A stretch of DNA of 64,000 nucleotides from Candidatus Sungiibacteriota bacterium (GTDB lineage Bacteria; Patescibacteriota; Minisyncoccia; Sungbacterales; HO2-52-23), in assembly GCA_016180435.1 (NCBI GenBank), contig JACPBG010000001.1, positions 283,107 to 347,106 on the forward strand. The letters run 5' to 3'. The translations under genes and the position numbers were made by a program. Under the pieces are notes generated by a model. That model was not told where the DNA came from. It ran no database searches and saw only the letters and a program-made list of their open reading frames with translations. Shown here piece after piece: positions 7,111 to 31,626 of this stretch. Position 1 is the first letter of the stretch. Each line of letters starts with the position of its first letter.

Positions 7111-7146
7111 ATTTGATCAAGTGTTTAAAAATGATAATATGGTTAA

Positions 7147-10740: not shown

Positions 10741-10800
10741 AATCGAATATACGAATTCGTATATTCGTACGAAATTCGATATTCGTTGATAAATTCTTAT
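10741..10800. repeat. TACGAAT-family palindromic copy abutting the deacetylase start
   Basis: Contains the perfect palindrome CGAATATACGAATTCGTATATTCG. Confidence 0.5.
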
Positions 10801-11840: not shown

Positions 11841-11843
11841 AAT

Positions 11844-14331: not shown

Positions 14332-14340
14332 AAATGATAA

Positions 14341-14796
14341 TCAAATCTCTTTATTCTCGCTTCTTTTTAAGTAGTTACCAAGGAGCCAGGAACTTGATTG
14401 TATTTTCCCGCCCGCGCCAACATTAAACTCCATCCGGCAATTTATTTTCCGGCAGACCGAAACTTCCGGAATATTATCTTGGGTCCTATCCCCGCCATTG
14501 GAAAAAATATGCGGACGGATTTTTTCAAGTTCCGAACAGACGCTCATATCGGCTGGATCGGGCGGATGAGAAGTTAAAACAACCTCGTCCACATCGCCAA
14601 GCGCCTCAATTATTTCTTTTCGTTCCTCCTCGGACATGAAAATCCGGCCTTTTTTCTTACGCAGCCAATTATCATTATTTAAAATTACGATTAATCTGTC
14701 GCCAAGTTTTTTCGCCTCTTTAAACAATCGGATGTGCCCGGCATGCACCGGGTCAAATCCGCCGCTGACCGCGACTATAATTTTATTATTTTCCAT
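14341..14796 (-). CDS. HIGH-motif nucleotidyltransferase, RfaE domain II-like sugar-phosphate adenylyl/cytidylyltransferase
   Basis: VSGGFDPVHAGHIRLFKEAKKLGDRLIVILNNDNWLRKKKG...GDVDEVVL...NGGD parallels the ADP-heptose synthase adenylyltransferase domain. Confidence 0.6.
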   Translation of the reverse strand: MENNKIIVAVSGGFDPVHAGHIRLFKEAKKLGDRLIVILNNDNWLRKKKGRIFMSEEERKEIIEALGDVDEVVLTSHPPDPADMSVCSELEKIRPHIFSNGGDRTQDNIPEVSVCRKINCRMEFNVGAGGKIQSSSWLLGNYLKRSENKEI

Positions 14797-14841
14797 ATTA
14801 TTTTAAGGATTTATTAAATAAAGGAAATAAAGGTGTCACCT

Positions 14842-17046
14842 TTATTTAGCAATTTTCTTAAACAAATCAATCCATTCCTGCGCGGCATCTTCCCAGGAAT
14901 GAACAATATGCGTCTTTCTCAACTTTTCTCTTTGCGCCGCCCTATTTCTTTCATCCATCAGCCATTTCAATTTCCGAACGAGTTCGTCATCATTTAACGA
15001 ATCAACCCAAAATGAACTATCCGCAATATATTCAGTATAACCGGAATTTTTAGTAAAAAGAAACGGGGTGCCGCCCGAATATGCTTCGGCAATGACATTG
15101 GGCCCCACATCGGAAAACGACGGCAGGACGAGAAACGAAACTCCGGACATTTCTTGCAGAAGGTCATCGTGGCGCGCCGGCGGCGCAAAAGTAATGCCCA
15201 TAAAGCCCTTTTCTTTCACAAATTTTTCAACCCGGGTTTTCTCCGGTCCGTCTCCTATCAATTTAAGTTCATATCCACCCGCATTTGCGGCAGAAAACGC
15301 GCGGATGAGGCGATACAAATTTTTAAGGTAAAGCATTCTGCCGACCCATAGAATAACTTTGGTTACTGGTAACTGGTTACTGGTAACTGCTTGAGATGGC
15401 CAAACATTGCGGATAATAACGGTCTTTTGGCGATCAATTCCAAACGCCTGAATGATCATTTCACGGCGCCACTTAGATGAAAACACCAAGCGATCCGCGC
15501 GGCGCATAACCCAGCCGATCGTGGCGCGTATAATGCGCTCTTTATGGGTGAGTGCCTGAAAATTTGCATAAAAATCCGGCAGCGTTACCTCGCGTTGCGT
15601 TCGTTCCACAAAACTTTCCCATAAAAAATCACCCTCCACCCGCAACACGAATGGGATTCTGAATAATACGGACGCAAGCGCCGCGGGGAAACCTGCGCTA
15701 AATGAATCCAGACCCATAATTATATCGGCAAAAAAACATTTCCGGGCGAATTTTAAAAAATAGACAAAATGGCGCACCAGCGTCGGGAGAGATAAAACAT
15801 CCCCGAAAGAGACCACGGAAACGCGCATACCGGATGCGCGAAATTTATCTCCAAAATTTTTGGCATAAAGCGCCGGGCCACCCAACTGTGGCGGGTATAA
15901 AGGAGTAGCTATAAGAATGTTCAACACCCGGTGTTGAACAAAGCGAGAAAAGATTTCCCCGTAAGATGCCGCTATTTTATCCCACGAAAAGCTTTCCTCC
16001 ACCATTTTTCTGCCCCCCTCAATGGTCTGTTTGGCATCTTCGGGATGGCGCAAAACATATATGATCTTTTGGGCAAGATCATCGGCATCGTCCGGTTTTG
16101 CGAAAAAACCTGTTTTTCCGTCCTCAATAATGTCCGTAATACCGCCGACCGGAGTACCGATAATCGGGAGACCGGCGGCAAGCGCCTCTACAAACGAATT
16201 ACCCATGCCCTCGGAGCGGGAAGGACGGACGAAAACATCGGCTCCATGCAGATACTTTGAAATTTCGTCATGAGGAACACTGCCGAAAAACTTTACGTTA
16301 GTTTCAAGACGGTTACTGGTTACTAATAACTGGTAACTAGTTCTCTCGGGGCCGTCGCCAATAATATGGCATTGAATATCCGGAATTTCTTTTTTCACCT
16401 CGGCTACAGCCTTTATTAGCGTATCTATGCCATTTTTATACACCAGCCGAGACGTGGTTATTATGATTTTTTGTTTTAGATTCTTTTGAAAATTAGAAAT
16501 TGGAGATTGGAAATTTTTAACATCTACGCCATTGTGTATCACTTCACCCGGTTCGTTGTAGCCGTAGCGCCGCGCCAAATTCAAAAGATAACTGGAAATT
16601 GCAGTAACGTAATCAGCCCGGCCTAGAATAAAACGAAACATAAGAGATATTATACCAAACCGGCCATGGGATAAACGCTCCTCACTCTCGCCGAATTGAA
16701 TGTTCAATATAAAAGGAACGGAGGGATGTAATAGTTTATATATGGCAGCGGCAATTGACCCATGCGAAATATCCACTCCAATTACTATAGAGGCTAAGCC
16801 TCTATAGTAAAATTGGGCTAAAATAAGCCAATATTTATCAAGGGGGGTCCCGATACCGAATCGCACAATAGTGCCTTCGGGGCGGATCTCTTTTTTAGGA
16901 AGCTCGCGGCGAAAACGCGAAGTAAAGATTAAAAAATCAAAACGGTTTGATAACCGCTTGGCAACTTCCGAAATAGCGATTTCCGCGCCTCCGATAAACG
17001 GATGATAAGCGGTGGAAAAAACAATAATTTTAGGTTTTATGAACAA
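14842..17046 (-). CDS. two-module glycosyltransferase (double GT4 fusion)
   Basis: 734 aa with two consecutive GT-B units (…RPSRSEGMGNSFVEALAAGLPIIGT… and …LPSFSDVGPNVIAEAYSGGTPFLFT…). It contains three in-frame short repeat insertions. Confidence 0.75.
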   Translation of the reverse strand: MFIKPKIIVFSTAYHPFIGGAEIAISEVAKRLSNRFDFLIFTSRFRRELPKKEIRPEGTIVRFGIGTPLDKYWLILAQFYYRGLASIVIGVDISHGSIAAAIYKLLHPSVPFILNIQFGESEERLSHGRFGIISLMFRFILGRADYVTAISSYLLNLARRYGYNEPGEVIHNGVDVKNFQSPISNFQKNLKQKIIITTSRLVYKNGIDTLIKAVAEVKKEIPDIQCHIIGDGPERTSYQLLVTSNRLETNVKFFGSVPHDEISKYLHGADVFVRPSRSEGMGNSFVEALAAGLPIIGTPVGGITDIIEDGKTGFFAKPDDADDLAQKIIYVLRHPEDAKQTIEGGRKMVEESFSWDKIAASYGEIFSRFVQHRVLNILIATPLYPPQLGGPALYAKNFGDKFRASGMRVSVVSFGDVLSLPTLVRHFVYFLKFARKCFFADIIMGLDSFSAGFPAALASVLFRIPFVLRVEGDFLWESFVERTQREVTLPDFYANFQALTHKERIIRATIGWVMRRADRLVFSSKWRREMIIQAFGIDRQKTVIIRNVWPSQAVTSNQLPVTKVILWVGRMLYLKNLYRLIRAFSAANAGGYELKLIGDGPEKTRVEKFVKEKGFMGITFAPPARHDDLLQEMSGVSFLVLPSFSDVGPNVIAEAYSGGTPFLFTKNSGYTEYIADSSFWVDSLNDDELVRKLKWLMDERNRAAQREKLRKTHIVHSWEDAAQEWIDLFKKIAK
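16785..16807. repeat. 23-nt CTATAGAGGCTAAGCCTCTATAG palindrome inside the double-GT4 CDS (in frame, encodes YYRGLASIV)
   Basis: Exact copy of the intergenic palindrome. Confidence 0.6.
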
Positions 17047-17082: not shown

Positions 17083-18381
17083 TTAACTTCGGCGTCTGAC
17101 AAAAATAAATCCTGCGGCAGCCGCCAAACCGAGGAACACCGCAGCAGCCAAAAAAATGGAAGGAGAAAACCCGGTATGCTTTGAAACTGTAGCTGTTTCA
17201 GAAATATTTTTTGGAGCAGGCGGTCTTGCCGAAAATTCTTCGCTCTTCACATTTTTACCCGCCCCAGACGCGTTTTCTACTTTTTGAGAAATCACGGGGG
17301 ACGGCAATAACGCCAATGTTTTGTCCGTGGCCGCCCGCAGTTCATTGCCCGCCTCTATTTTCGCTTTCTCCTCCCAACTAAACGCCAGCGATAAATTAGG
17401 ATAACGCATGCGCAACAGGGCCGGTCCCTTAAAAAGAATTCCGGTAATGCTATTGGCAAATGCGGTCTCGGATTTAGAATTAATAACGGTCCGTGGCGGA
17501 ATAATAAAGCTTTGGCCGGCCGCATCCTCCAAAATCCAGCCTCCGACATCCACCGCAACCGACCCTTCGTTTTTCAATACCGCAAATCCCGCCTCTCCCA
17601 TTAAAACGCGCGATACCGAAAATTGGTTTGGAATAACTTCTATAGCCGCATAGTCGGACGCGGAGTATTCGCCGGATGAGACATGCAAGCCCATGGTATA
17701 GCGCCCGGGAATAAGAAATGAATAATTAATCGTTTTTCCTTCTTTGGTCTCCCCATTGCCGAAATTCCACCAAAATCGGGCGTTGGTTAATGGTTCTCCG
17801 TTCACGCCTTTAGCGCTTCCGGAAAACTCCATATTGGCTCCCGCCACAACCGTCCGGTCTTCTCCGGCATATGCCTGAATTTTTTTATCCGATGCGAAAT
17901 TCGCTTCTCCGCCGGAAACAGAAGAGGTTAACGGCATAACCGGTGACGGATTTTCTCCCGACGAATCCGCAGACGGATCATTTGAATCGGATATAGTTAT
18001 GGGCTGGCTTGCGGACCATGATTTTCCCGAATCGCGCCCGGTGGCTTTAACCGTGATATTATAAATTCCCGCACGCGAATCGCGATAATAAAAAGTGCGG
18101 TTTGCCGTGTTTTTAGCCATAACCGCACTTACCGGATTGCCGCTTGAATTCAAAAATTCTCCGGATGAAGAAGTTGATAAAAATTCCAGGTCAATGGTTT
18201 CTTCGGTTTTTATTTCAAAACCCGCGGCATCCTGCGCCTGAATTTTTATCTCATCGGAAATCGCGCCCGGTTGCACCAGGCGCGATTCGGTAATAAAAAC
18301 AAAACGCGCAATGGATGAGGCGGCGGATATTTCGGCAAACGGAAAAAATGCCAGGAATAAAATTAAAATGACCCGCTGCAT
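17083..18381 (-). CDS. secreted surface protein with a PKD domain and a lamin-tail domain (LTD) and a C-terminal membrane anchor
   Basis: N-terminal signal peptide; FWWNFGNGETKEGKTINYSF (PKD); GWILEDAAGQSFIIPPRTVI (LTD-like); C-terminal hydrophobic stretch followed by RRRS. Confidence 0.55.
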   Translation of the reverse strand: MQRVILILFLAFFPFAEISAASSIARFVFITESRLVQPGAISDEIKIQAQDAAGFEIKTEETIDLEFLSTSSSGEFLNSSGNPVSAVMAKNTANRTFYYRDSRAGIYNITVKATGRDSGKSWSASQPITISDSNDPSADSSGENPSPVMPLTSSVSGGEANFASDKKIQAYAGEDRTVVAGANMEFSGSAKGVNGEPLTNARFWWNFGNGETKEGKTINYSFLIPGRYTMGLHVSSGEYSASDYAAIEVIPNQFSVSRVLMGEAGFAVLKNEGSVAVDVGGWILEDAAGQSFIIPPRTVINSKSETAFANSITGILFKGPALLRMRYPNLSLAFSWEEKAKIEAGNELRAATDKTLALLPSPVISQKVENASGAGKNVKSEEFSARPPAPKNISETATVSKHTGFSPSIFLAAAVFLGLAAAAGFIFVRRRS

Positions 18382-18439: not shown

Positions 18440-18486
18440 CTATAGAGGCTAAGCCTCTATAGTAAACTATTGAGGTTTAACCTCAA
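18440..18486. repeat. 23-nt palindrome CTATAGAGGCTAAGCCTCTATAG plus adjacent 17-nt palindrome TTGAGGTTTAACCTCAA
   Basis: Perfect palindromes. The same 23-mer, or close variants, recur at 16785-16807, 20418-20481 (two copies), 40183-40205, 50541-50563 and 51295-51317. Confidence 0.7.
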
Positions 18487-19291
18487 CTTTTTTCTTCAGA
18501 GATTCGATCGTTGTAACTACTTCCGAATTTTGCGGATCTTTTTCCAATACTTTCTGCCACCAGACAAGAGCCAGTGAAAATTTGCCCTCGGTTTCGTACA
18601 AACGCGCCAGATATTTCGTAAGATCCAAGGAATCCGGATTGGCCGCGATACCCTCAAACAAAATATCATCCGCCAAATCCTTTTTTTCCGCATAAGAATA
18701 TGAATATAAATCGGAAAGCGACATATAAGTTGACGGGTCATTCGGCTTATTTTTTATGGATATTTTGAAATTTTCCTCGGATTTCGGAAAATTCGGTATG
18801 TATCTCCAATAAAGCTCACCTAAATTCGCAAAAGAAACCGAATTTTTAGGGCTAATAACACCGGCGTACTCCCAAGCGTCCCGCGCCCCCTCAAAATCCC
18901 CGATCACTTTTTTAAGCAGTCCCACCTGGATCCAGCCGAAAAAATAATCGGGCTTTTCCTTTACGGCGCTTCCGTGCATGCGCAACTCGCCATAAATTTT
19001 TTCTTTCTGTTCCGCGCTGAATAATTTTACTTCCTCCGGGCTGGACCGCACCTCCTGCGGATCGCGGCCGGTATATGAAGGCGCCTCGTTTTTAACCACT
19101 TTACTCTTTTGATCCTCGGCAGATGGCGCGGACCGGGATGGAGGTAAAGAAATTTCCTGCGGATTAACCGGAGAAAAATCAGGACCGAACGAAAAAAGGG
19201 CGGAAATTTTGTCACGAAATACAAAAACCGCGACAATTAAAAAAAATGCCGCTATGACTATGCTGATTTTTTTAACAGAAAAACTTATCAC
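18467..19291 (-). CDS. membrane-anchored TPR-repeat protein
   Basis: N-terminal TM helix. The C-terminal half has TPR-like repeats (WEYAGVI..., LGELYWRY..., LARLYETEGKFSLALVWWQKVLEKDPQN). Confidence 0.55.
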   Translation of the reverse strand: MISFSVKKISIVIAAFFLIVAVFVFRDKISALFSFGPDFSPVNPQEISLPPSRSAPSAEDQKSKVVKNEAPSYTGRDPQEVRSSPEEVKLFSAEQKEKIYGELRMHGSAVKEKPDYFFGWIQVGLLKKVIGDFEGARDAWEYAGVISPKNSVSFANLGELYWRYIPNFPKSEENFKISIKNKPNDPSTYMSLSDLYSYSYAEKKDLADDILFEGIAANPDSLDLTKYLARLYETEGKFSLALVWWQKVLEKDPQNSEVVTTIESLKKKVEVKPQ

Positions 19292-19384: not shown

Positions 19385-20365
19385 CTAGTCCCGCCTGAAA
19401 GTGAATGAAAATCCGCCGGTTGGACTTATCGGAACCGCGGCCAAAAATTCTTTAAACTCGAATTTCAGAGTGCCGCTTATGACATATTCCATTCCGTCAA
19501 TCCACAAGCCCAGCGCCTTGACCTCCCCCGGATTTATGATCACATCATACGAGAGACCCGCTGGCGCGCGATGCGGAGAATCAGATTGGGGAACAGTGGA
19601 ATTAAATTTAAAAGAAGTCCGGCTGATCACATCATCCGCGGTAGTCGTGCCTTTGCGCAAAATAAAGAATACTTCGCGTCCGCGGTTCAATTGCGCGTTC
19701 ATTTGATCCGTAACATTCATAATAATTTGCGAGAGCGGAATTTTTTCCGAAGTGCCGTTTCGTATGGTAATATCTCCAATTTTTAAAGAGGATACCGAAT
19801 TTGGCGGAAACTGCTGATCTCCGCTGCCGGACACCTCAAGAACCGGAGACGACGTAGGAGATGGAATAACCGGCTCTGAAATTGTAGGCGTAGGAACAGA
19901 CGTCGGAGCAGGCGCAAGGATCGGCGTAGGCGCGGGAGTTGGCGCAGGCACTGCGACAGATCCGCTCTGTAGAGCCGCTATTTGGCTCTGGAGCTCCTTA
20001 ATTTTGGCAAGAAGCTCTATGATCTGTTTGTCGGAAGTTGAAACCGGTATGGATGAAACAGGCGCAACGGGCTGTTTCACCAGCATTTCATTGGCTCGCG
20101 CCCTGGTTTTTGGCCCAAAATAGCCCGCCGGTGGCGTAATTTTTTCTCTTTCCTGAAACACCTTCACTCCCTCGCGCGTCAAAACCAGGAAATTGCCGGT
20201 TATGGGGCCGCTATATACGTTCTCGTTACGCAAAAACTCCTGCAGGCGTATTACATCCGAATCATTGCTCATGCCATAATAAAGGTCGCGCTCAAAACCC
20301 GCAGCGAATACAAAAAGAGGGGCAACCGCTAAAAGTAAGATAAGAATAACTTTTGATTTTTCCAT
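19385..20365 (-). CDS. secreted protein with a PG_binding_1 peptidoglycan-binding domain, a coiled coil and a Pro/Thr linker
   Basis: Signal peptide; DVIRLQEFLRNENVYSGPITGNFLVLTREGVKVFQ (PGBD); LLAKIKELQSQIAALQSG (coiled coil); PAPTPAPTPILAPAPT. Confidence 0.6.
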   Translation of the reverse strand: MEKSKVILILLLAVAPLFVFAAGFERDLYYGMSNDSDVIRLQEFLRNENVYSGPITGNFLVLTREGVKVFQEREKITPPAGYFGPKTRARANEMLVKQPVAPVSSIPVSTSDKQIIELLAKIKELQSQIAALQSGSVAVPAPTPAPTPILAPAPTSVPTPTISEPVIPSPTSSPVLEVSGSGDQQFPPNSVSSLKIGDITIRNGTSEKIPLSQIIMNVTDQMNAQLNRGREVFFILRKGTTTADDVISRTSFKFNSTVPQSDSPHRAPAGLSYDVIINPGEVKALGLWIDGMEYVISGTLKFEFKEFLAAVPISPTGGFSFTFRRD

Positions 20366-20417
20366 ATAAATCCATTATATATCATACAAGATTCTACTTC
20401 AACTCTCTCTTCACGGA

Positions 20418-20481
20418 CTATAGAGGCTAAGCCTCATAATCAACTATAGAGGCTTAGCCTCTATAGTTGCCTCTATAGTAC
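20418..20481. repeat. two tandem copies of the 23-nt CTATAGAGGC(T/A)TAGCCTCTATAG palindrome
   Basis: Intergenic, between two PGBD surface protein genes. Confidence 0.65.
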
Positions 20482-20535
20482 GCAAGAAACCGAGTTTCCC
20501 AAGGAAACTCGGTTTCTGGACTATTTTCAAAACAG

Positions 20536-21558
20536 TTATTGCCCTTGCAAAGCGTTGATTTTGGCCTGAATTTCCTGAATTTTCTGCATAATCGCATTAA
20601 TTTGGGCTTGATTGCCGGTTGTTCCGGTCGGAGCTGACTGCGGAACTGGCGGCGCAGTCGGAGGCGAAACAACAGGAGCGGACGAACCGCCAAAGATCTC
20701 GTTCAATTTTGCCATGGTCTTAGGACCAACTCTTCCATTGCCCAGATCATTCGCGCTTGCAATCACGCCGTATTTTAGCTGAAAACGGCGCACGGCATTA
20801 CGGGTAAGAGTCCCATAATATCCGGAGGCAGTTCCTTCAGGATAAATAGCCGGATCCTGCGCAAGCAACTGCTGGAGCCGATGCACTTCATCGCTCCTCT
20901 CCCCGGGATTCATAACTCTGGCAAATACTCCATATGCCGGAGGAACTGCGGTTGGAGCCGGAGTTTCCTGGCCGGAGCGCAAAGCCGTGATTCGCGCCAT
21001 AATTGCCGCAATTTGCTGCTGGATTGATGCTATGGTCGGAGATGCCGGAGCAGAAATCGGTGTCGGAGTTGGAACCACTAATCTTGGAGTCGGGGTTGGA
21101 GTTGGCGCTGGAGGAGAATAAGAACTCCCGCCACCGCCTCCGCCTCCGCCGCCGGTGGAAACCGAACCTGGGGCTCCACCACCGCCACTACTGCTACTGC
21201 AACTCCCCGAGGGACTTACAGTAATGGTTTCAGTTGTAGCGCCCTGACCCTTAGACAGAACAATCCGCGATTGACTGGACTCACATAGGGTAGTTGCACC
21301 CAATGAAGGAGAAACCGTAAAATTTTTCTTATCAGCCGAGGTTATCTCTATGCTTGATCCGGCGGACATCACAAAATCGAAACTTGAAGTGTTCACCGTT
21401 ACCGAATCAAACGTACTGCCTATGAACACCGTATATTGGGAACTATCGGAAGGAAGCACCAGAGTGAAACTATTCGCCACACTCACCTCGTTTGCCGCCC
21501 AAACCGCCCAAGGCGACACCAGCAGGAAGAAAACCGCAAAGAATTGCTTATTGGTCAT
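20536..21558 (-). CDS. secreted protein with a PG_binding_1 domain and two coiled coils, Gly/Ser and Pro/Thr linkers
   Basis: Signal peptide; GGGGAPGSVSTGGGGGGGGGSS; IQQQIAAIMARITALRSG; VHRLQQLLAQDPAIYPEGTASGYYGTLTRNAVRRFQ (PGBD); QKIQEIQAKINALQGQ. Confidence 0.6.
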   Translation of the reverse strand: MTNKQFFAVFFLLVSPWAVWAANEVSVANSFTLVLPSDSSQYTVFIGSTFDSVTVNTSSFDFVMSAGSSIEITSADKKNFTVSPSLGATTLCESSQSRIVLSKGQGATTETITVSPSGSCSSSSGGGGAPGSVSTGGGGGGGGGSSYSPPAPTPTPTPRLVVPTPTPISAPASPTIASIQQQIAAIMARITALRSGQETPAPTAVPPAYGVFARVMNPGERSDEVHRLQQLLAQDPAIYPEGTASGYYGTLTRNAVRRFQLKYGVIASANDLGNGRVGPKTMAKLNEIFGGSSAPVVSPPTAPPVPQSAPTGTTGNQAQINAIMQKIQEIQAKINALQGQ

Positions 21559-21635
21559 AATGATTACGCATGGCGCCTGAACTTATCATGTTGCAACACG
21601 AACAATCCGGAGCCACACGCTAAAAAAGGCGAGTG

Positions 21636-23393
21636 TTAGCGAATAATCAGATAGCGCCAGGTGGAAGTTGTAACGGTCCAGGCGGCATCGGTCATATTAT
21701 ACAATTCTGCCTGTATACGATTGGCCGCCGTGGTAGATGCTTTGCCGGTATAAATTACAGTGCCTCGGCCGGAACCAAATGAACCAGTACCCATAGCAGT
21801 CGTAGTTGCTGTAAGAAATACCGCGTCATTAGTGGCTACGTTACTAAGGCCTGTTGTACAACCGACAGTACCGGTTGAAGTAGCGGCGATAGATTGAGCA
21901 TCTAAAATGGGTCCGCAATCAACAAACCCGGTCAAAACCTGAGTCAAGGCCGTGCCATTTGCGCCCATTTTGGTAGTGCCAGTATGCGTAGTTACGCCAG
22001 TTACTCCCAGCGTGCCTCCTATTGTAGCATTATTGGATACGCTCAACGCGGATGTGGTGGCAAAGGAAGTTGCGGCAAAATTTGTGGAAGTAGCTTGAGT
22101 AAGAGTGGCGTAAGCGTTTACAGTCAGGGTGTCTACGGAATCAGTGCCCAAGGTGATATTACCTTGAATAGTGGCATCATTAGATACACGCAACGCGGAT
22201 GTGGTGGCAAAGGTAGTTGCGGCAAAATTCGTGGAAGTGGCTTGAGTAAGAGTAGTATAGGCGTTTACAGTCAAGGTCTGCGAGGAAGATTGTCCAACCG
22301 TAACATCACCCTGAAGAGTGGAGGCATTAGATACCCGCAACGCGGATGTGGAAGCAAACTGGTCTACGTTAAGAGTGGTGGTGGTTGCCAGAGTTGTGGT
22401 AGAACGAGTTAAGTTTAATCCGATCATGGTGGAAGAGGCATAGTTTACAATAATACCAACAGTAGTGGTAGGTCGAATTGAATCTTGCGCAACGGTTACT
22501 CCCCAATCGCGTCCGTCGCCCGGCGCATCCGTACCACAACCAAATTTTCCGGTAGAAAGGGTGTAAACCACTTTATTAGTAGAAGCCACACAGTCACCAA
22601 AAGTAGTTTGGAAAAATGCATTGGATACCGTGAGCTGGGAAGTGGAAGCAAACGAAGTCACGGCCAAATGCGTGGAAGTGGCTTGGGTAAGAGTGGCATA
22701 AGCGTTTACAGTCAGGGTGTCTACGGAATCAGTGCCCAGGGTGGTATTGCCCTGAATGGTTGCATCATTGGACACTCTCAAAGCCGAGGTGGTGGCAAAG
22801 GTAGTAATGGCAAAATTTGTGGAAGTAGCTTGAGTGAGCGTGGCATAGGCGTTTACAGTCAGAGTGTCTGCGGAATCAGTGCCCAAAGTGATATTACCTT
22901 GGATAGTGGCATCATTGGACACTCTTAAGGCCGAGGTGGTGGCAAAGGTAGTAATGGCAAAATTCGTGGAAGTAGCATTAGCCAAAGTTACATCGGTATA
23001 AAATGTAGCAACTCCGGTTACCAATAAAGTGCTGGATGCCCGCAAAGAGCCGTCAAACCACACGATTCCGTCATATTCGGCCTGGCCCTCCACTAACAAT
23101 GAATCTGTGGCAAGAGCTGTCAGGTGATCGCCGGTTGATCCGGTACCCACGCGCGCGCCTGACGTTACCGTAAGGTCATCGCTGGCAGTTACCGCTCCGG
23201 TCAGAGTAGATGCGCCATCCACGGTCAATGTTCCAGACACCGTAACATTTGTCCCGACAGACGTTGCCCAAACCGACATTCCAACAGCCAAAGCGGCGCC
23301 CATGGCAGCGGCCGATGCGATCTTCAAAAGATTTCTTTTAAGAAACTTTTTTTGCATAATAATTGTTTTTATAAATAGAACCGAATAAACCAA
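21636..23393 (-). CDS. secreted Thr/Ser-rich surface protein with ~46-aa tandem repeats
   Basis: Signal peptide. At least 5 copies of ATSTNFAITTFATTSALRVSNDATIQGNITLGTDS(A/V)DTLTVNAYATLTQ, encoded by ~138-nt DNA repeats. Confidence 0.6.
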   Translation of the reverse strand: MVYSVLFIKTIIMQKKFLKRNLLKIASAAAMGAALAVGMSVWATSVGTNVTVSGTLTVDGASTLTGAVTASDDLTVTSGARVGTGSTGDHLTALATDSLLVEGQAEYDGIVWFDGSLRASSTLLVTGVATFYTDVTLANATSTNFAITTFATTSALRVSNDATIQGNITLGTDSADTLTVNAYATLTQATSTNFAITTFATTSALRVSNDATIQGNTTLGTDSVDTLTVNAYATLTQATSTHLAVTSFASTSQLTVSNAFFQTTFGDCVASTNKVVYTLSTGKFGCGTDAPGDGRDWGVTVAQDSIRPTTTVGIIVNYASSTMIGLNLTRSTTTLATTTTLNVDQFASTSALRVSNASTLQGDVTVGQSSSQTLTVNAYTTLTQATSTNFAATTFATTSALRVSNDATIQGNITLGTDSVDTLTVNAYATLTQATSTNFAATSFATTSALSVSNNATIGGTLGVTGVTTHTGTTKMGANGTALTQVLTGFVDCGPILDAQSIAATSTGTVGCTTGLSNVATNDAVFLTATTTAMGTGSFGSGRGTVIYTGKASTTAANRIQAELYNMTDAAWTVTTSTWRYLIIR

Positions 23394-23748
23394 TCAATGG
23401 CGTATAAGATCCGTATTTACAATAATTACACCGATAAAATCGGCGTATCCTAAATTAAATTTAATTAAAAAACGATTTCGACGCTTTAATAAGTAAAAGA
23501 GTTGCTCAAATCCATATTTTCCAAAAGTAATCAAACCTTGCTTTGAAAATTAGGAATAGAGTAACTCTTTTTATTATATCCTCTCTGAAAACCCATGCAA
23601 TAGGGGGGGCTGTGGATAACTTTTCTCGCTCGCTATAGCGGTTTCGGCTGTTGCAATTTAGACATGGCTATCTACTCGGTAATCGCCTTTTCGTTCAAAA
23701 CTTCGGTCTGGACAAAGTTTTCGTTCGGCATCCTGCGTTTTTCGGCAA

Positions 23749-23957
23749 GGCTTCGGCCGCTCCTGCGGCGGCCTGCAGGGTCGGAAAAATTCTCAGACCG
23801 TCCGAAAACTGCAAAAACAGCACTTTCGTCATTCTGAGCGCAGCGAAGAATCTCGTATTTAAGCCATTATAAAAACGCATAGATTCTTCACGTTGTTCAG
23901 AATGACAGTTTTCGGACGGTCTGAGACCAAGCAATTTTTCCTCCCATTGCCGAAAAA
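23749..23957 (-). ncRNA. structured element copy D (expanded ~140-nt hairpin) upstream of the 585-aa surface protein gene
   Basis: Diverged but recognisable flanks (…CTCCTGCGGCGGCCTGCAGGGTCGG… and …ACCAAGCAATTTTTCCTCCCATTG…). They surround a near-perfect long hairpin whose outer stem is CTCAGACCGTCCGAAAACTG/CAGTTTTCGGACGGTCTGAG. Confidence 0.35.
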
Positions 23958-24180
23958 ATGCAGGGTGCCTCACTTATAGCAAAGATAGGCCTTCCGTTAA
24001 TTTCACGAAAAAAGCGGATTACCTCGCCAAGAAATTCATATTGCACATTGCAATGGCCAAAATCGCAGCTGACTCGCTTTTGGGGATTGCTGAATGTATA
24101 CGCCTTCGGCGGTTACTCCATTATATAAAAATGAAACAATTTATATCATAGATAAGCCATTTTCCCATCAGGAAAACACC

Positions 24181-24210
24181 AAAAAACCCCGCTTAAAAAA
24201 CGGGGTTTTC
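24181..24210 (-). terminator. second hairpin terminator (AAAACCCCG-loop-CGGGGTTTT), bidirectional in appearance
   Basis: GC stem flanked by A-run and T-run on both sides. Confidence 0.4.
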
Positions 24211-24423
24211 TATTAGTGAAGTCCGACTTCAATAGATTATCTATTGAAGTCGGACTTCGATAACTTAAATAATTACAAAGCCCCGCTGGAAGCGGGGCTT
24301 TGTCGAGCTCATTCACCCCGTTAGAGATCCGGCCCATCGCAATAGAATGTCAGAAATTATCTCTCCGGTTCCATACGCTTCACCACGATTTTACCGTTCC
24401 GCATCTCTAACGGGGCAAGCAAG

Positions 24424-24460
24424 GATAAAAAAACCAACCCCCAAGAGAGGGGGTTGGTTC
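24424..24460 (-). terminator. rho-independent terminator after the giant surface protein gene
   Basis: Stem AACCAACCCCC / GGGGTTGGTT with loop AAGAGAG, followed on the minus strand by a T-run. It lies 20 nt past the stop codon. Confidence 0.6.
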
Positions 24461-24479
24461 CAAGTCCACAAGGATGACT

Positions 24480-27400
24480 TTACTTCGTGAACGATTGCGG
24501 GGTCATTTCCGTACCCGGAAGTCCGGACACCTGGAAACCGTTCAGCCAGTCCACATTATCAACCGAAGAGGTCGTAGTGGTGTTTGGCGACCAGACAAAC
24601 TTACCGGTTGCGCCAGACACCGCATCAGATGTTTCGCGGCTAACCAAGTTGGTGTTGTTGGCCACTGCCGAATCACCCAAGAGCGCCACAGAGATATTGT
24701 CTCCGGCTGTTACCGAAGCGAATGTTCCAAGAAGCTGGAAGTAACGGGAAGTTCCTGCCGGGATATTAAGTGACTCAACCGATTCATCAGCCGCAGACGC
24801 GGTTGTAAGCGCCGGGTTGAAGAAGAACACTACGCTGTTGGAAGGCGCTCCATGCGTTCCCACACCTCCCCAAGTGCTCGTACCAACTGCAGATACGTTC
24901 GTTGCCGAGGAATACCCGGTATGAACAGGGTTGGTAGCATACGCTGCAGTAGAGAAGCTTGAGTCAGAGTAGGCATAGAGTTTGAAGACCGTGGTAGTTG
25001 CAACCGTAGTGGAAGATACGCGGAAAGACAAGCGCGACAAACCTACATCTCCGGCGGCATCGGCCGTTACCTTAAAGCGATACAAAGTCATTTCTCCGTT
25101 GGCAAGAGTGTTAGACGATATTGCCAAACGCTCAAGTGTCGGATAGGACTTCACTAGGCGCACTCCGCCTCCGGCAGTATTTCCACCAGCCGCCGGGTTA
25201 ATCGTAACTCCGGATGATTGCCCAATACCATCGCTTTCTGTGGCTCCGGCTTCACCATCATGGTTAACAGCAACCAAATGTCCGCGGGTTGCGGGCTGAT
25301 TCACGCCCAAGGTTGACATATCGCCTTTAATAGTAAGCAATTTGTCGCCGTCTTTCGGAACAATGAAGGAAGAAGACAGAGTTGAGGTAGCGCGAGTATT
25401 CGTACCCTGGAATAGGGCTTCACCCACCTTGGTTGCTCCATCCCACAACGTTACTTTCATAAGGTCGGAGGAGGATGCAGTGGAAGATGAGAGGACCAGC
25501 GCTATGCGGTCAAGCTTAATGGCCTCATTATCCGCATGGAACTTCAAGACGCTCAACAGAACATCGGTTTTGCCGGCAATGGCGTATCGTTCCTGGGTTG
25601 GAGACGAAACATCCAAAGCAACCGACAAAGTGCCGTTAGCCGCAACAGTCATGGTCGGACCTCCGCTGGAGTGAGCGGTAATGGTTGCGGTCACCGTAAC
25701 TCCGGTGTCTTTGCCAACCGCAGTCGGGGTGTTATTGGTCGCATCGGCAATTCCGACATTATAAGTGGAAGTGGTTGCAACCGAGGAAATGTTACATTTG
25801 ATATCCACAACCTTGGAAGTTCCTTTAGGAACAATCAAGTGGGTATCAAAGCTAATTGACTTGTCCGCTTCATCGGCGTCATAGGCGTGGCTGGAGAAAC
25901 CAACAACATTTCCGCCGGTGTTTAAGGCAAGCGAGCCATCCCAAATCTGACAAGTATTCAGATTATCAAGGTCCGCGCCCGCACCCGCGGCAAAGTCAAG
26001 TTTCTGCGAAGTTATGCGCACATCCTCTCCGGAATTAGTTCCGTCATACTGCAAGGTTCCCATAAGGAATCCGTTGATACCGCTAACCACAGTTTGCGCA
26101 ACCGGGTTAGTACCCATTGCCAAACGCAATGAAGCGGCGCGAACAGTCATGGTATTGGCGGAAACCGCAGTTGAAGGAGTAGCGGTAATGGTAAGTCCGG
26201 TGGTTTCGCCTTTGGCGGTAATATGGCTACCCGGAGTCACAGCCGCCACTACGGTATCACCATCCTCAAAGTCGGTAGTTAATTTACCTTTTAGCTTGTA
26301 GGCGTGCACTCCCACCGGCACGGTCCAGGAATCGGTGAAGGTTACGGTTTCATCCGCTAATACATCTTTGGGACCGGCAACTACAGCACCGTTTTCATCC
26401 ACAATGGACAAACTGTCAATCTGGGTTCCATCCTCGCCCGCTGAAAGGGTAAAGGTAACCTTGTAAGAACTTATTTGCACAGCTTCGCCCTTGGATTCCA
26501 AGGTGAATGCGCCAAGTTCGGTGTTAGATACGTCCAGCGCCACATTGCCTGCGGAAACCGCGTTGGATTTCTCCACACGCAAGGATCCTTTCTGGATATC
26601 ATGCTGATATGCGTCATAGTAGGGCTCGGTGTTGGAGAATGCGCCGGTGTCATCCGTCGGGTCAGAGGAGCCATTGGCCGGAGTTATGTAATAGCCAAAG
26701 GTTTTACCGCGGGCCACCATATCGGTTCGGCGCTGAATGTCAAAGTCAACATTTCGTCCGGAACCGGATACGATATCCGCTTTAATTGAGATATCCATGG
26801 TGGCGCCTTTATCATACTCAACACCCGATCCAAAGACCGCCGTGTAGTATTTGCCGTCCGAGGAAAGAGTGGTTTCATAATCAACTCCTTTAACGGATAC
26901 TTTAACATTGGCCAAGTCGCCGGATCCGGCTGAACCGGATTGATACCATCGCATTCTTTCAAGAATAACCGGCTCGGCTGATCCAACGCTCCACTTTACA
27001 CCGGAGGAAATAAACGCCATAGTGCCGATTTCAAGATTGGTTCGGGCCGAACCCGGATCAAGCGTTCCGCGCGAAGGGGACGCCAGCGAACCAATGGCCA
27101 AAGTGCCGTTGATAGTCATGCCATTGCCCACGATCGGGAATGATCCATTGACTGCGGAAGAACCCGCGTCAACCGATACAACCGCGAATTTCGCAACTTG
27201 TCCGGCTTCGCCGCCAAGATTGCCGGTTGTGTCCATATTGGCGCCAACCGTCATAGTGCGGGAAGTGCCGGCTTTAACCACAAAGGGTTCATTCAATAAG
27301 GCACGGTGAAGCGAATTCAAGGTCTTGGCAAGGCCAACCTGATTTCCGTTCTCATCCAAGAGAACTAAATCAAGAAATGCGCTGTCGTCCGCCAATCCCT

Positions 27401-28049
27401 GGCGTTCCACCGTGATTGATTTCACAGTTACGTCTCCATCGGCTGATGCCGTAAATACGGCCTTTACCATAGGAAGACGCGAGGCGTTTTCAACTGCAAG
27501 CGTTGCCGCCGGCTGATCGGTTGAGGAAACCGTAAGACCGGTTCCGGCCGGAACAACTACCGGACCAGGAGTTACCGGACCGGGTGTTACCGGACCGGGT
27601 GTTACCGGACCGGGTGTTACCGGAACAGGCGCAACCGCTAGCATTGAATTATACTTTGCGCGTGAAATTGCTCCGAAATATCCGGCTGCCGGAGATACTC
27701 CGTTAGCCGCCTGCCAGGCGGATACCGCCGATTGGGTGATTGAACCGAAATATCCGGTTGCACCGCCGGAATAAGTGAAGTGGCCGGTGGATGTCAAATA
27801 ATTCTGTAAGCATGTTACATCATCTCCGCGCGCGCCCACAGTGAGATCACGCGAGAAACTGCATCCACTCGCTGGCGCGGATGGACCGCCCTGAAGGGCT
27901 AAAATCTGGGCTTGAAGAGCCGCGATTTGCGCAAGCAACTGTTGGATAACCGAATCGGTTGTTTGAGCCGAAGTTACCGGGGCAAATACTGCCGCTCCTA
28001 TAATGGCGATTGCCGTAGCAATGCTCGCCACTTTAAGTTTTATGTTCAT
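24480..28049 (-). CDS. giant (1189 aa) secreted surface protein with N-terminal coiled coil, PG_binding_1 domain and PVTPG repeats
   Basis: Signal peptide MNIKLKVASIATAIAIIGAAVFA; QQLLAQIAALQAQILALQGG; DDVTCLQNYLTSTGHFTYSGGATGYFGSITQSAVSAWQ (PGBD); PVTPGPVTPGPVTPGPVTPGPV; then ~950 aa of beta-rich sequence. Confidence 0.65.
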   Translation of the reverse strand: MNIKLKVASIATAIAIIGAAVFAPVTSAQTTDSVIQQLLAQIAALQAQILALQGGPSAPASGCSFSRDLTVGARGDDVTCLQNYLTSTGHFTYSGGATGYFGSITQSAVSAWQAANGVSPAAGYFGAISRAKYNSMLAVAPVPVTPGPVTPGPVTPGPVTPGPVVVPAGTGLTVSSTDQPAATLAVENASRLPMVKAVFTASADGDVTVKSITVERQGLADDSAFLDLVLLDENGNQVGLAKTLNSLHRALLNEPFVVKAGTSRTMTVGANMDTTGNLGGEAGQVAKFAVVSVDAGSSAVNGSFPIVGNGMTINGTLAIGSLASPSRGTLDPGSARTNLEIGTMAFISSGVKWSVGSAEPVILERMRWYQSGSAGSGDLANVKVSVKGVDYETTLSSDGKYYTAVFGSGVEYDKGATMDISIKADIVSGSGRNVDFDIQRRTDMVARGKTFGYYITPANGSSDPTDDTGAFSNTEPYYDAYQHDIQKGSLRVEKSNAVSAGNVALDVSNTELGAFTLESKGEAVQISSYKVTFTLSAGEDGTQIDSLSIVDENGAVVAGPKDVLADETVTFTDSWTVPVGVHAYKLKGKLTTDFEDGDTVVAAVTPGSHITAKGETTGLTITATPSTAVSANTMTVRAASLRLAMGTNPVAQTVVSGINGFLMGTLQYDGTNSGEDVRITSQKLDFAAGAGADLDNLNTCQIWDGSLALNTGGNVVGFSSHAYDADEADKSISFDTHLIVPKGTSKVVDIKCNISSVATTSTYNVGIADATNNTPTAVGKDTGVTVTATITAHSSGGPTMTVAANGTLSVALDVSSPTQERYAIAGKTDVLLSVLKFHADNEAIKLDRIALVLSSSTASSSDLMKVTLWDGATKVGEALFQGTNTRATSTLSSSFIVPKDGDKLLTIKGDMSTLGVNQPATRGHLVAVNHDGEAGATESDGIGQSSGVTINPAAGGNTAGGGVRLVKSYPTLERLAISSNTLANGEMTLYRFKVTADAAGDVGLSRLSFRVSSTTVATTTVFKLYAYSDSSFSTAAYATNPVHTGYSSATNVSAVGTSTWGGVGTHGAPSNSVVFFFNPALTTASAADESVESLNIPAGTSRYFQLLGTFASVTAGDNISVALLGDSAVANNTNLVSRETSDAVSGATGKFVWSPNTTTTSSVDNVDWLNGFQVSGLPGTEMTPQSFTK

Positions 28050-28237
28050 AGATTTTATTAATTATATTTGAAACCCATCCGTTCTTCCCTGCGTTGCAAA
28101 GAATGAAAGGAGGGCTTCGTGGCACAAGCGCTCATCTTTTTTTATCTTCGACGATTAGATAAATTGATGGGCGCTATTTTATTACCTGTTAATGCTGATA
28201 ATTTCTGTTGGAGTCAAGCCTAACCCGCGCTCCGCGC

Positions 28238-28460
<223 letters not shown>

Positions 28461-28516
28461 CTCCGTGCGAAGCACAGGACCGACCGGACTTTGAAGCTCC
28501 ATCGTGATTCAATTTA

Positions 28517-28577
28517 ATTACTGATTACTGGTAACCCCTCGACCCGACTCGGGGCAAGCTGGTTACTGGTAACTAAT
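28517..28577. repeat. intergenic copy of the TTACTGGTAAC repeat flanking the hairpin CCCCTCGACCCGACTCGGGG
   Basis: TTACTGATTACTGGTAA, then CCCCTCGACCCGACTCGGGG, then GCTGGTTACTGGTAACTAAT. A similar hairpin, CCCCTCGACTCCGCTCGGGG, lies in frame in pilD at 40363-40382. Confidence 0.55.
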
Positions 28578-28805
28578 CAATTGTCAAAGTTCTCTCCGCG
28601 TGCATCCAGGTTACAATCATTACAATCCGAATTTTGCCTGCGTAACGAGAATTAATCCATACTACACAATCAAAATTCAGATTGCAAGCGCTTTCAGTTT
28701 TCTTTGCTCAAAACAGCCAAAAAATGGCTTCCTTTCAGAACTTTTTAGTACATACAAACATGCTTATATTCTTATTATATATCCATTCAAACCCCATGCA
28801 AATTC

Positions 28806-29030
28806 ACTTATCCACATATGCATGATGCCAATCCGATGCGAATTTAATGCCAATCTGGCGAATTGCTAATATGTGATGCCAATCCAATGCGAATTTAATG
28901 CCAATTTAGCGAATTGCTAATATGTGATGCCAATCCGATGCGAATTTAATGCCAATCTGGCGAATTGCGAATAAATATTAAGTTCATTTGTAGATTAGCA
29001 TAAGATTTGTAGATTGGCATCATATATGCA
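28806..29030. repeat. GATGCCAAT-family composite element (52-nt unit x3 tandem + inverted arm)
   Basis: TGATGCCAATCCGATGCGAATTTAATGCCAATCTGGCGAATTGCTAATATG x3, then TTGTAGATTAGCATAAGATTTGTAGATTGGCATCAT. Confidence 0.65.
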
Positions 29031-30034: not shown

Positions 30035-30976
30035 CTATTGGACACTATTCAAGGAATACACAGTCCATCTTTTTTCTCCATCTTTTTTAAGTATATTCCT
30101 TCCGACCAAATCCTGCAGGTCTCGCTGAATGGTCTTGGAACTTATATTGGAGAATGCCGTATAAAAATCGCTTATTTTTGCCTGTGAAGACAATTTTAAA
30201 TGTTCAAGTATTTGTTTTTGCCTGTTGCTTATCACTTCTGAAATACCCACAAAACTTCCGGCAATTATTTTTTCCGCCTTTTTTATTTTTTTATCCTTAA
30301 CATCGGTCTCCGTAGCTGAAATCCCGTCCCGGGGAACAAATTCATCCCAAGTAGAAAGCGCTTCCGGACGGGTCATCGCTTCTTCACGGCGATTTGTATC
30401 CGACTGTTTCCCAGCCACGTTAGAGATGCGGAATGAATTTACGCCAGTAGGAGCACGCTTGATTGCGGAGTTATTTTCACTTGGTGTTTCGGCGCTGACT
30501 AAATCTCTAACGGGGTCAAAAAAATCAGCCAGAGACGCATATTCCCGTTCAAGCACCGTGATATTAATAGGCCTGACCAATTTCAATGAACGCGCTAATT
30601 CTAAATATCCCTTGATTGCCTCAATCTTGCCTAAAATCGCTATGGCATCGCCAATATGCGAGTCCCCTCCATAAACGTACTCGGTCGCCCCGCTGAAAAT
30701 TTCATTGGCCTTCTCACGCAAGGATTTGCGCAAAACTTCGTCCTTGGGGAAAAAATCCGTAACGCGATAAAGCGCCAAGGTCAAATCAAAAATCTTCCTT
30801 TGAGCCCCGTTAAAAGTCCGATCCGCTCGCGGATCAGCAGATGCCTCTGGCGTCTGATTTTTAACGGGGTGAATATCTGAAAAATTAGATGAGGATCGCA
30901 TTAACATTCTTTTCAGCATACAAAAAACAGGCGATCCGTCAACATTGACCCGATTAAAGATCTGTTTCGTATTCAA
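30035..30976 (-). CDS. putative transcriptional regulator with a C-terminal winged HTH
   Basis: The C-terminus ISSKTIQRDLQDLVGRNILKKDGEKRWTVYSL is HTH-like. The N-terminal region is helical (four-helix-bundle-like). Confidence 0.35.
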   Translation of the reverse strand: MNTKQIFNRVNVDGSPVFCMLKRMLMRSSSNFSDIHPVKNQTPEASADPRADRTFNGAQRKIFDLTLALYRVTDFFPKDEVLRKSLREKANEIFSGATEYVYGGDSHIGDAIAILGKIEAIKGYLELARSLKLVRPINITVLEREYASLADFFDPVRDLVSAETPSENNSAIKRAPTGVNSFRISNVAGKQSDTNRREEAMTRPEALSTWDEFVPRDGISATETDVKDKKIKKAEKIIAGSFVGISEVISNRQKQILEHLKLSSQAKISDFYTAFSNISSKTIQRDLQDLVGRNILKKDGEKRWTVYSLNSVQ

Positions 30977-31626
30977 TTCATGACACCCAACTCGCGTAAC
31001 GCATCCTGATACGCGCGGAGCGCATTTATAATTATTTCCTTGGTGTGTTCAGTTGTGGGATCATGGGCAATGGTATTACGCAGACGATGCGCGGACCAGA
31101 CACGGTCAAGCGACGGAAGAGTTGCCGGATCCAAAATTTTCAGGCGGTCTGCCATGGTCTCGCCCTGATAGCCCTTGTGCTGAAGCATATCATCCAAAAT
31201 AGCATCGGCGCGCAATATAGACATATTCCAATCCGAAGGGTTGGAGGAGTTGGCAAGCTCGCGTATCCGCTCCCAATTAGCCACAACTTCGCTATCCGGA
31301 GATACTACATGGATTTCCGGCGGCTTGGGTGGAGCAATAACCGGAGTCATATACAAATTGAAATACTTATAAAGTACAGTTACGGCAAAAGCTATCAGCA
31401 ATAAATCAAGAACTATGAATACAAGCATGGGATAAAACAGCGTATCTTTGAAATCCTGCGATCCGAGCCATTCCAGCAGATCATTATATCCTCCCAAAAA
31501 TTGATTGGCCGAAATCCCCAAAACCGCGGCGATAACCAGCGCCACCATGAATGCCAGCCCAATATCCATTGAGGTATTGGTTAATTTTTCATCTGTTTTA
31601 GGATTTGGATTGGTATGAAGAGGCAT
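30973..31626 (-). CDS. membrane-anchored protein with a C-terminal HEPN-like (Rx4H) domain
   Basis: Two TM helices, then a soluble domain containing RLRNTIAH (Rx4-6H). Confidence 0.3.
   Translation of the reverse strand: MPLHTNPNPKTDEKLTNTSMDIGLAFMVALVIAAVLGISANQFLGGYNDLLEWLGSQDFKDTLFYPMLVFIVLDLLLIAFAVTVLYKYFNLYMTPVIAPPKPPEIHVVSPDSEVVANWERIRELANSSNPSDWNMSILRADAILDDMLQHKGYQGETMADRLKILDPATLPSLDRVWSAHRLRNTIAHDPTTEHTKEIIINALRAYQDALRELGVMN

Follow-up and report, generated by a model that had tools for sequence, protein, structure and literature searches.

Groundwater ultra-small bacteria reportedly carry envelopes that resemble surface layers (S-layers), as Luef et al. are said to have described in 2015. 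S-layers are also reported in some Patescibacteria (PMC13293708), and cryo-electron microscopy (cryo-EM) of Ca. Nealsonbacteria revealed an apparent S-layer, the authors proposing a role for the three peptidoglycan-binding proteins of that organism (10.1101/2022.04.20.488981). The formation and structure of the envelope in the candidate phyla radiation (CPR) have been said to 'remain unclear', and a curated parcubacterial genome was without recognised S-layer genes (PMC5220378). In three Paceibacteria, secreted proteins bearing a peptidoglycan-binding domain (PGB) are among the top-expressed genes of unknown function (PMC10936435), while a swappable anchor joined to a fixed body is known for S-layer and wall proteins of Firmicutes (10.1101/2025.04.02.646754). 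There is an acknowledged gap in knowledge of what the CPR/Patescibacteria envelope consists of, an S-layer having been seen by cryo-EM and its gene being unassigned. Here we describe a concrete candidate, encoded in a window of 64,000 nucleotides from a Candidatus Sungiibacteriota bacterium (assembly GCA_016180435.1, contig JACPBG010000001.1, positions 283,107 to 347,106 of the forward strand; the window is this whole stretch, and coordinates below refer to it). The protein, G, is one conserved, class-wide protein of ~1200 amino acids (aa) with a defined anchor, a fixed tetratricopeptide repeat (TPR) partner and a conserved leader. We give roughly an even chance to the reading that it is a self-wall-anchored, S-layer-type major surface protein of Parcubacteria, to which two neighbouring proteins, A and B, are accessory on the same anchor.

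The three genes concerned lie on the minus strand:

19385-20365, minus strand: gene A, 326 aa, an open reading frame (ORF) with a PF01471 match
20536-21558, minus strand: gene B, 340 aa, an ORF with a PF01471 match
24480-28049, minus strand: gene G, 1189 aa, an ORF with a PF01471 match

These ORFs agree exactly with a preliminary description of this DNA, and all peptides quoted there occur in the translations. The PG_binding_1-like segments which it had pointed out pass the Pfam profile: compared with a gathering score of 23 bits for PG_binding_1 (PF01471), the matches score 32.2 bits in A (residues 35-89), 33.8 bits in B (222-285) and 34.8 bits in G (74-119). No further PGB ORF was found in the window when our own PGB hidden Markov model was run against its six-frame translation. 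The N-termini of all three proteins, judged by eye, resemble Sec signal peptides, with a lysine-rich n-region, a hydrophobic core and small residues at -3 and -1; their portrayal as secreted proteins with linkers and beta-rich domains is supported. The AlphaFold2 (AF2) monomer models show the PGB as a three-helix bundle (G residues 76-87, 103-115 and 127-137; A residues 36-47, 61-73 and 85-97), and that of the A model superposes on the N-domain of SleB (6tci) with a template modelling (TM) score of 0.81, an rmsd of 2.2 Å and 33% identity. Through this domain A, B and G are predicted to bind peptidoglycan.

Accompanying the PGB in each protein is a short heptad helix of ~18-24 residues, that is 2.5-3.5 heptads. 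Its pattern has four matches in the six-frame translation of the window, all inside A, B and G. The common heptad signature proposed earlier is genuine, as is the permuted order of the elements: helix-PGB in G, PGB-helix in A and helix-PGB-helix in B. AF2 models it as a single helix at G 32-50, with a predicted local distance difference test (pLDDT) of ~55, and at A 110-133 (pLDDT 77-91), the latter encoded as follows:

19967-20038, minus strand: A heptad helix, residues 110-133 (..IIELLAKIKELQSQIAALQ..), from the AF2 model, with conserved a/d positions

Across the A family (41 sequences, 36-66% identity) L118, I122, L125 and L132, in 4-3-7 spacing, vary little or not at all, and the conservation of these hydrophobic positions indicates that the heptad pattern is under selection and not low-complexity noise. 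Among all retrieved proteins with a PGB, such a helix is found no more than 45-60 residues away from that domain in 109/119 of the G family, always on its N-terminal side, in 103 of the 120 from the A search, always on its C-terminal side, and in 66/114 from the B search, on the N-terminal side, the C-terminal side or both. These counts come from a heuristic heptad and composition scan which, along with reading of alignments, took the place of a stricter regular expression that had given only 21/120. Oligomerisation of the helix is putative. The helix+PGB cassette occurs in many other architectures, in proteins of 210-565 aa with PG_binding_3, fn3, LTD and other domains, and so presents itself as a compact, reusable module for display on the wall. 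Neither the combination of LPXTG, hydrophobic segment and basic tail (translations, NCBIfam) nor a prepilin N_methyl match (Pfam) is present in A, B or G, and the cassette could account for the retention of many patescibacterial surface proteins on the cell without a sortase signal.

Beyond this module the three proteins part company. They had been taken for a paralog family with shuffled domains, an idea that does not survive comparison by BLASTP and by hhalign of the three family alignments, both of which confine the similarity to the anchor. G has only the PGB in common with A and B, which themselves share PGB, linker and C-terminal helix. Neither method relates the beta-sandwich of A (residues 176-326), the N-terminal domain of B (23-121) or the 1024 residues of the G body to one another. 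Since homology exists only in the anchor, these are three distinct proteins on one wall-anchor cassette rather than domain-shuffled paralogs. Nor is the C-terminal domain of A a duplicate of one of the G domains, a possibility ruled out by hhalign, which gave no relation outside the anchor. The earlier remark that the set belongs to no characterised family stands: the non-PGB parts have neither a Pfam or NCBIfam match nor a relative of solved structure.

The layout of G is as follows:

27966-28049, minus strand: signal peptide, residues 1-28 (MNIKLKVASIATAIAIIGAAVFAPVTSA), Sec-type by eye, with an equivalent N-terminus in homologs
27900-27956, minus strand: heptad helix, residues 32-50, of Q/A/L/I composition (IQQLLAQIAALQAQILALQ), from AF2 and the family count above
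27639-27863, minus strand: PG_binding_1 domain, residues 63-137, by Pfam, pLDDT ~90
27555-27635, minus strand: (PVTPG)n spacer, residues 139-165, predicted disordered, pLDDT <50
24483-27554, minus strand: body, residues 166-1189, ~6-7 beta-sandwich domains in the AF2 model
24810-24899, minus strand: hypervariable loop 1 of the last domain, residues 1051-1080, entropy 2.27, ~10 inserted columns, pLDDT <50
24630-24719, minus strand: hypervariable loop 2 of the last domain, residues 1111-1140, entropy 2.15, ~10 inserted columns
24483-24602, minus strand: C-terminal motif FxWSPNTTTT..DWxNGxxVxGLP..QxFxK, residues 1150-1189, from the family alignment

The AF2 model, built on a 48-sequence alignment, has a mean pLDDT of 82 and consists of helix, PGB, disordered spacer and an all-beta body. 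Within the PGB, C63 and C80 are each at least 90% conserved in the family alignment, and when the family profile was compared with PDB sequences only PGB domains matched (1lbu, 4lpq, phiKZ gp144, SleB). The spacer, identified by Tandem Repeats Finder as a 15-nt unit repeated 4.5 times at 27558-27624, is variable and gap-rich across the family. Foldseek comparison of G with PDB and BFVD returned only chains of Ig-like or macroglobulin-like (MG-like) sandwiches, at TM scores of ~0.1-0.17, among them the Ig domains of PrgB, alpha-2-macroglobulins, integrin legs and Antigen I/II. Searches with Pfam, NCBIfam, the PDB profile and Foldseek brought up neither an enzyme fold nor a catalytic domain, and self-BLAST revealed no internal sequence repeats. 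From residue 181 to 1020 the family alignment is nearly free of insertions and deletions, indel-rich hypervariable stretches being limited to the two loops of the last domain. The C-terminal consensus can also be written FxWSPNTTTT..DWxNGxxVPGLP..QTFSK. In composition (pI 4.86, 0.3% Cys, 22% Ser+Thr) G is typical of S-layer proteins, a likeness that discriminates weakly.

Homologs of G are numerous. A word-indexed search returned 758; the best 120 of these match over their full length, share 42-89% identity with G and measure 1048-1262 aa. When only the body (166-1189) served as query in an exhaustive search, the number of representative clusters (50% identity) was 1942 for E<=1e-3, 1423 for E<=1e-10 and 623 for E<=1e-30, and the family has at least the last of these numbers. 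Most clusters are 1100-1290 aa long, with the body beginning at residue 140-260. Among GTDB species genomes a single peptide pattern retrieves 101 relatives, distributed over Sung-, Yanofsky-, Giovannoni-, Lloyd-, Ryan-, Taylor- and Yonathbacteria and, further, Zambryski-, Vogel-, Niyogi-, Kaiser-, Komeili- and Portnoybacteria. With more than 12 named parcubacterial candidate phyla represented, the family spans much of the class.

Throughout this range the body is constant and the N-terminal module varies between clades. Most members have an 'AQIAALQAQL' helix followed by the PGB, some have another helical motif ('LTQAQVDSII..FGAD..TINNV') ahead of it, and in others the PGB comes directly behind the signal peptide. 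In proteins like those of Portnoy- and Komeilibacteria (L073, L074, L075, L078, L080, L084) the anchor is replaced by an unrelated domain of ~130-220 aa with repeated 'VY.V..G.K' motifs. No Pfam match was obtained for the alternative N-terminal domains, and the replacement is a candidate novel wall-binding domain.

The neighbourhood of G was compared by searching the window proteins against the ORFs of 85 related loci, with denominators that count the loci having enough flank (at least 5 kb for the TPR gene). This identified a constant partner, absent from the preliminary description:

18467-19291, minus strand: TPR protein, 274 aa, with an N-terminal transmembrane helix (Pfam TPR)

In 48/49 loci the TPR gene follows G downstream, in the same orientation, mostly starting 15-350 bp past the G stop codon. 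For the reciprocal comparison, a 20-sequence TPR alignment was searched against the metagenome collection and gave 80 loci, a broader 39-sequence alignment being set aside as too diverse for pattern search. Of the 45 TPR loci whose upstream flank reaches 1.5 kb or more, 31 have G upstream; 13 of the other 14 have A (with or without B) there, on contigs that end before the position of G. Where the flank is at least 5.7 kb, G is present in 22/22. The agreement of the two directions, 48/49 and 22/22, establishes G and the TPR gene as an obligate pair. A Komeilibacteria metagenome-assembled genome, JAZDLR01, has two G-family genes on separate contigs (L075, L081), each followed by a TPR gene, which means that the pair can duplicate as a unit. 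As to orientation of the TPR protein, the positive-inside comparison is even (2.09 versus 2.07 K/R), and an asymmetry of acidic residues favours N-in/C-out.

The other genes of the interval are far less constant: A accompanies G in 9/49 loci, B in 6/49 and R, a gene described below, in 4/49. Conservation of A, B and G together, which had been set beforehand as a test of the original proposal, was therefore obtained in part, within the clade closest to the window (Sungbacteria-proximal), and not in the G loci at large. In that clade, to which A, B and R are essentially restricted, they always lie between G and the TPR gene, with A, where present, directly upstream of the latter. The trio is a local elaboration of the G-TPR pair.

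The non-coding gap upstream of G is also distinctive, with a median length of ~650 bp (51 loci). Its last ~110 nt before the G ATG can be aligned across 12 loci whose G proteins are 43-59% identical, and contain a hairpin; terminator-like hairpins follow the gene:

28070-28118, minus strand: G 5' leader hairpin, a 13-bp consensus helix ~20 nt before the ATG, from the 12-locus alignment
24461-24430, 24303-24275 and 24212-24180, minus strand: three tandem terminator-like hairpins past the G stop, with 13-15 bp stems, from a consensus scan

The leader hairpin is 85% paired, compared with 37-68% for slid partners, and its covariation is 0.47 versus 0.36 for shuffled alignments, with 0/500 shuffles as high. 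Read in order (28070-28160), the leader comprises a 'GTCGACAGATAAAAAAGATGAGCG'-like box, the hairpin (GAAGCCCTCCTT...AAC loop...GGATGGGTTTC), an A-rich spacer and the ATG; it has no Rfam match. Of the terminator scan we use just the three hairpins that follow the G stop codon, and those only as a hint. The long gap, structured leader and tandem terminators fit, and suggest, a strongly expressed, insulated gene.

The reading of G as an S-layer-type protein starts from the domain identities, predicted fold, family breadth, synteny and leader conservation set out above. As in S-layer proteins, a secreted protein (its signal peptide judged by eye) has a wall-anchoring module apart from a large assembly region. 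The reading draws on the class-wide, indel-free body, the swapping of anchors, the pairing with the TPR gene, the leader and the presence of a glycan cluster on the same strand. G would be exported by Sec, and its N-terminal module would then act as a non-covalent tether to the cell's own peptidoglycan, the short heptad helix perhaps oligomerising and so multiplying the weak affinity of a single PGB. The flexible PVTPG spacer would carry the remainder through the wall, where a rigid chain of 6-7 beta-sandwich domains would form the outer layer and the last domain would display its hypervariable loops outward. The TPR membrane protein would be a dedicated partner for assembly or anchoring of G, which the products of the adjacent glycosyltransferase/PMT_2 cluster may glycosylate. 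In the Sungbacteria clade, A and B would put other beta domains in the same wall zone by means of the helix+PGB anchor. For the set as a whole, the wall-anchored surface role suggested earlier remains the best reading of the PGB and helix architecture. What is new is that the anchor cassette is previously undescribed, the class-wide body family uncharacterised and the TPR partner obligate. More tentatively, and with less confidence than in the reading itself, G may represent a new S-layer class, in which a trimerising heptad helix and a single PG_binding_1 replace SLH or CWB2, assembly depends on the TPR protein, possibly through the C-terminal '..DWxNGxxVPGLP..QTFSK', the mRNA has a structured leader, and A and B are docked under or within the layer.

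Several points weigh against an S-layer-type role. The lattice, the abundance and the peptidoglycan binding of G are properties that we infer. S-layer proteins are usually poorly conserved, whereas G keeps 35-60% identity across candidate phyla, and SbsB, SbsC and Sap are not among its top 50 PDB Foldseek matches. The helix is short and has a pLDDT of only ~55 in G. Some 10/119 members, and clades in their entirety, lack it or have something else in its place, so G can do without it. Prediction of the topology of the TPR protein is weak, and promoter and terminator scans were overall no richer than in shuffled sequence. Lastly, the highly expressed PGBD (peptidoglycan-binding domain) gene PMX_810_sub_00350 is, at 2079 nt and ~692 aa, not a G ortholog (PMC10936435 supplement); PF01471 is not listed in that supplement, and no G ortholog with measured expression was found there.

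One rival explanation is that G, with A and B, forms a set of host-attachment adhesins for episymbiosis, the PGB or the distal domain binding the host and the Ig-like chain serving as a stalk. The chain does resemble the Gram-positive stalks of PrgB and Antigen I/II by Foldseek, the hypervariable loops are at the distal end of G, the C-terminal domain of A is CBM-like (CBM, carbohydrate-binding module), and highly expressed PGBD/Ig-like proteins of Paceibacteria were read as host-attachment factors by those who described them (PMC10936435). Stalks, however, usually vary in repeat number, whereas G is near-universal in the class, of fixed length and indel-free, with non-repeated domains, and both the constancy of its membrane TPR partner and the nearby envelope glycan cluster suggest envelope biogenesis. 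Moreover, Paceibacteria in culture or enrichment have as their known hosts methanogenic archaea, which lack murein (PMC10936435, PMC12281837), so the PGB is unlikely to target the host. We regard this adhesin role, raised in the preliminary description, as unlikely and as less well supported than a structural envelope role; the two are compatible since an S-layer can also mediate contact. A similarly low probability attaches to the view that A, B and G are functionally unrelated wall proteins, adjacent by accident, which share a mobile patescibacterial anchor cassette. Homology limited to the anchor, the many architectures containing the cassette and the lack of A and B at most G loci all accord with it. 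What argues for a functional link with G is that the insertion site stays the same among genomes in which G proteins share only 43-59% identity: A is always between G and the TPR gene, and B, when present, is in the same interval.

Two further explanations appear very improbable, each to about the same degree. G carries the JGI label 'peptidoglycan hydrolase-like protein with peptidoglycan-binding domain', and PG_binding_1 is indeed typically found on wall hydrolases, the PGB of G matching 1lbu, an L,D-transpeptidase, endolysins and SleB; as a peptidoglycan-remodelling enzyme, though, G would need the catalytic domain that none of the Pfam, NCBIfam, PDB profile and Foldseek searches found in its all-beta-sandwich body. 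The other ties the A/B/G set, as an accessory, to the type IV pilus whose genes lie 9-20 kb off, and has in its favour the complete pilus locus in the window itself at ~36.9-49.7 kb. That link, also entertained at the outset, fails in other genomes, where just 2/82 loci have PilB/PilT homologs at a distance of 10 kb or less from G, and the proteins have no prepilin motif.

The domain arrangements of A and B, and the repeat protein R that lies between G and B, are as follows:

A: signal peptide 1-21, PGB 23-97, helix 110-133, Pro-rich linker 134-175, beta-sandwich 176-326
B, N-terminal half: signal peptide 1-22, beta-rich N-domain 23-121, poly-Gly and Pro/Thr linker
B, C-terminal half: helix 1 175-194, PGB 212-289, linker, helix 2 316-339
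21636-23393, minus strand: gene R, Thr-rich repeat protein, 585 aa, between G and B (ORF, repeats)

The AF2 model of A has a pLDDT of 88, and its C-terminal domain gave only generic CBM-like or jelly-roll fold matches. PF01471 is matched by 27/27 aligned members of the B family, and the PGB-linker-helix part of B is homologous to A by hhalign. R, whose true start is likely the ATG at 23357, is 22% Thr and has about five 49-aa repeats (ATSTNFA.TTFATTSALRVSNDATIQGN.TLGTDS.DTLTVNAYATLTQ). In Pfam searches it has no PGB and only sub-threshold matches to beta-solenoid and bactofilin families; it may be a fibre. The B-A intergenic region (20366-20535) contains a hairpin with a 15-bp stem at 20485-20517, then repeated 'CTATAGAGGC' palindromes, after which comes a promoter-like TTGAAG-17-TATAAT at 20402-20374; given this site, A may have a promoter of its own. 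The 1.08 kb between G and R includes, at 23700-23960, a long imperfect palindrome (GTCATTCTGAACAACGTGAAGAATCT ... AGATTCTTCGCTGCGCTCAGAATGAC) with a spurious 92-aa ORF, which looks like a repetitive extragenic palindromic (REP)-like element.

Upstream of G lie a region with three tandem-repeat arrays and, beyond it, the gene of a putative regulator with a helix-turn-helix (HTH) domain:

30035-30976, minus strand: DeoR-like HTH protein, 313 aa (HTH_DeoR 20.8 bits, cut-off 21)
28823-28973: repeat array 1, a 51-bp unit x3
28253-28362: repeat array 2, a palindrome-containing 43-bp unit x2.6
28377-28459: repeat array 3, TTCTAAG x12

The DeoR-like gene is upstream of G in 44/62 loci and its product may regulate G. 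In the window it overlaps by 4 nt the end of the gene for a 217-aa membrane protein without a family match (the two genes together at 30035-31626, minus strand). The three tandem-repeat arrays fall within 28253-28973 of the 970-bp region upstream of G and could be operator sites of the DeoR-like regulator. Less constant neighbours of G are an NTP-transferase (14/62), a double glycosyltransferase family 4 (GT4) gene (16/49) and a PKD/LTD gene (8/49).

On the minus strand from 30976 to ~2700 the window reads, in order, DeoR-like gene, NTP-transferase, G, R, B, A, TPR, PKD/LTD and double GT4, and then cytidylyltransferase, GT4s, a PMT_2 glycosyltransferase of type C (GT-C), deacetylase, CapD-like dehydratase, glycosyltransferase family 2 (GT2), FkbM methyltransferases and a UbiA-like prenyltransferase. 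The whole makes up a single, unidirectional envelope cluster of ~28 kb. Its glycan-biosynthesis part, ~15 kb at 2695-17046 on the minus strand and co-directional with the surface-protein genes, includes a 734-aa double GT4, two FkbM methyltransferases and a polysaccharide deacetylase, and is a candidate protein-glycosylation or wall-polymer locus. The PKD/LTD surface protein (17083-18381, minus strand) has a hydrophobic C-terminal transmembrane segment with an RRRS tail, reminiscent of a sortase or exosortase signal; it scores 14.0 for the NCBIfam LPXTG model (cut-off 15.9) and matches GVDTG_CTERM weakly. In the Sungbacteria clade its gene is found repeatedly downstream of the TPR gene. Nothing in the window reached the Rfam gathering threshold, and no tRNAs were found in it.

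Of the described systems, S-layer proteins of the Bacillus type (SbsC, SbsB, Sap/EA1) are those which G most resembles in design. Like G, they are secreted, of ~900-1200 aa, acidic and poor in Cys, with an N-terminal wall-binding domain preceding a chain of beta domains; SbsC, for example, has 'nine domains like beads on a string' behind its wall-binding domain (PMC13635256). Glycosylation is common among them, and genes for it are frequently close to theirs, just as the G locus adjoins a glycan cluster. The anchor of G differs, consisting of a heptad helix and PG_binding_1 in place of SLH or the helical domain by which SbsC binds secondary cell wall polymer (SCWP). Pfam, NCBIfam and PDB profile matches revealed neither SLH nor any other S-layer family in G which, without SLH, sequence similarity or a top-ranked fold match, falls outside the Bacillus-type group. 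G is also more conserved across lineages than typical S-layer proteins, and its formation of a lattice is a prediction.

Nearer in taxonomy are the highly expressed, secreted PGBD/Ig-like/PKD proteins of Ca. Yanofskyibacterium, Microsyncoccus and Minisyncoccus, which belong to the same class and have the same kind of architecture (PMC10936435), the comparison with A, B and G being one of descriptions and PMX_810_sub_00350 not being of the size of G. PrgB and Antigen I/II, the best Foldseek matches to the G body, are ~10% identical to it and are anchored at the C-terminus through LPXTG and sortase, whereas G, without LPXTG, has its anchor at the N-terminus. The SLH pseudo-trimer and the coiled coil of Braun lipoprotein (Lpp) may be likened to the A/B/G anchor as attachment to the wall through a helical oligomer, a putative analogy; Lpp has a covalent bond to peptidoglycan, SLH has pyruvylated SCWP as its ligand, and neither is homologous to this anchor. 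The same three-helix PGB, finally, is found in wall enzymes such as the Streptomyces albus G DD-carboxypeptidase (1lbu), SleB, phiKZ gp144 and L,D-transpeptidases. There it targets a catalytic domain and a heptad helix beside it is not a regular feature, whereas in A, B and G it is combined with non-catalytic beta domains and flanked by a conserved heptad helix.

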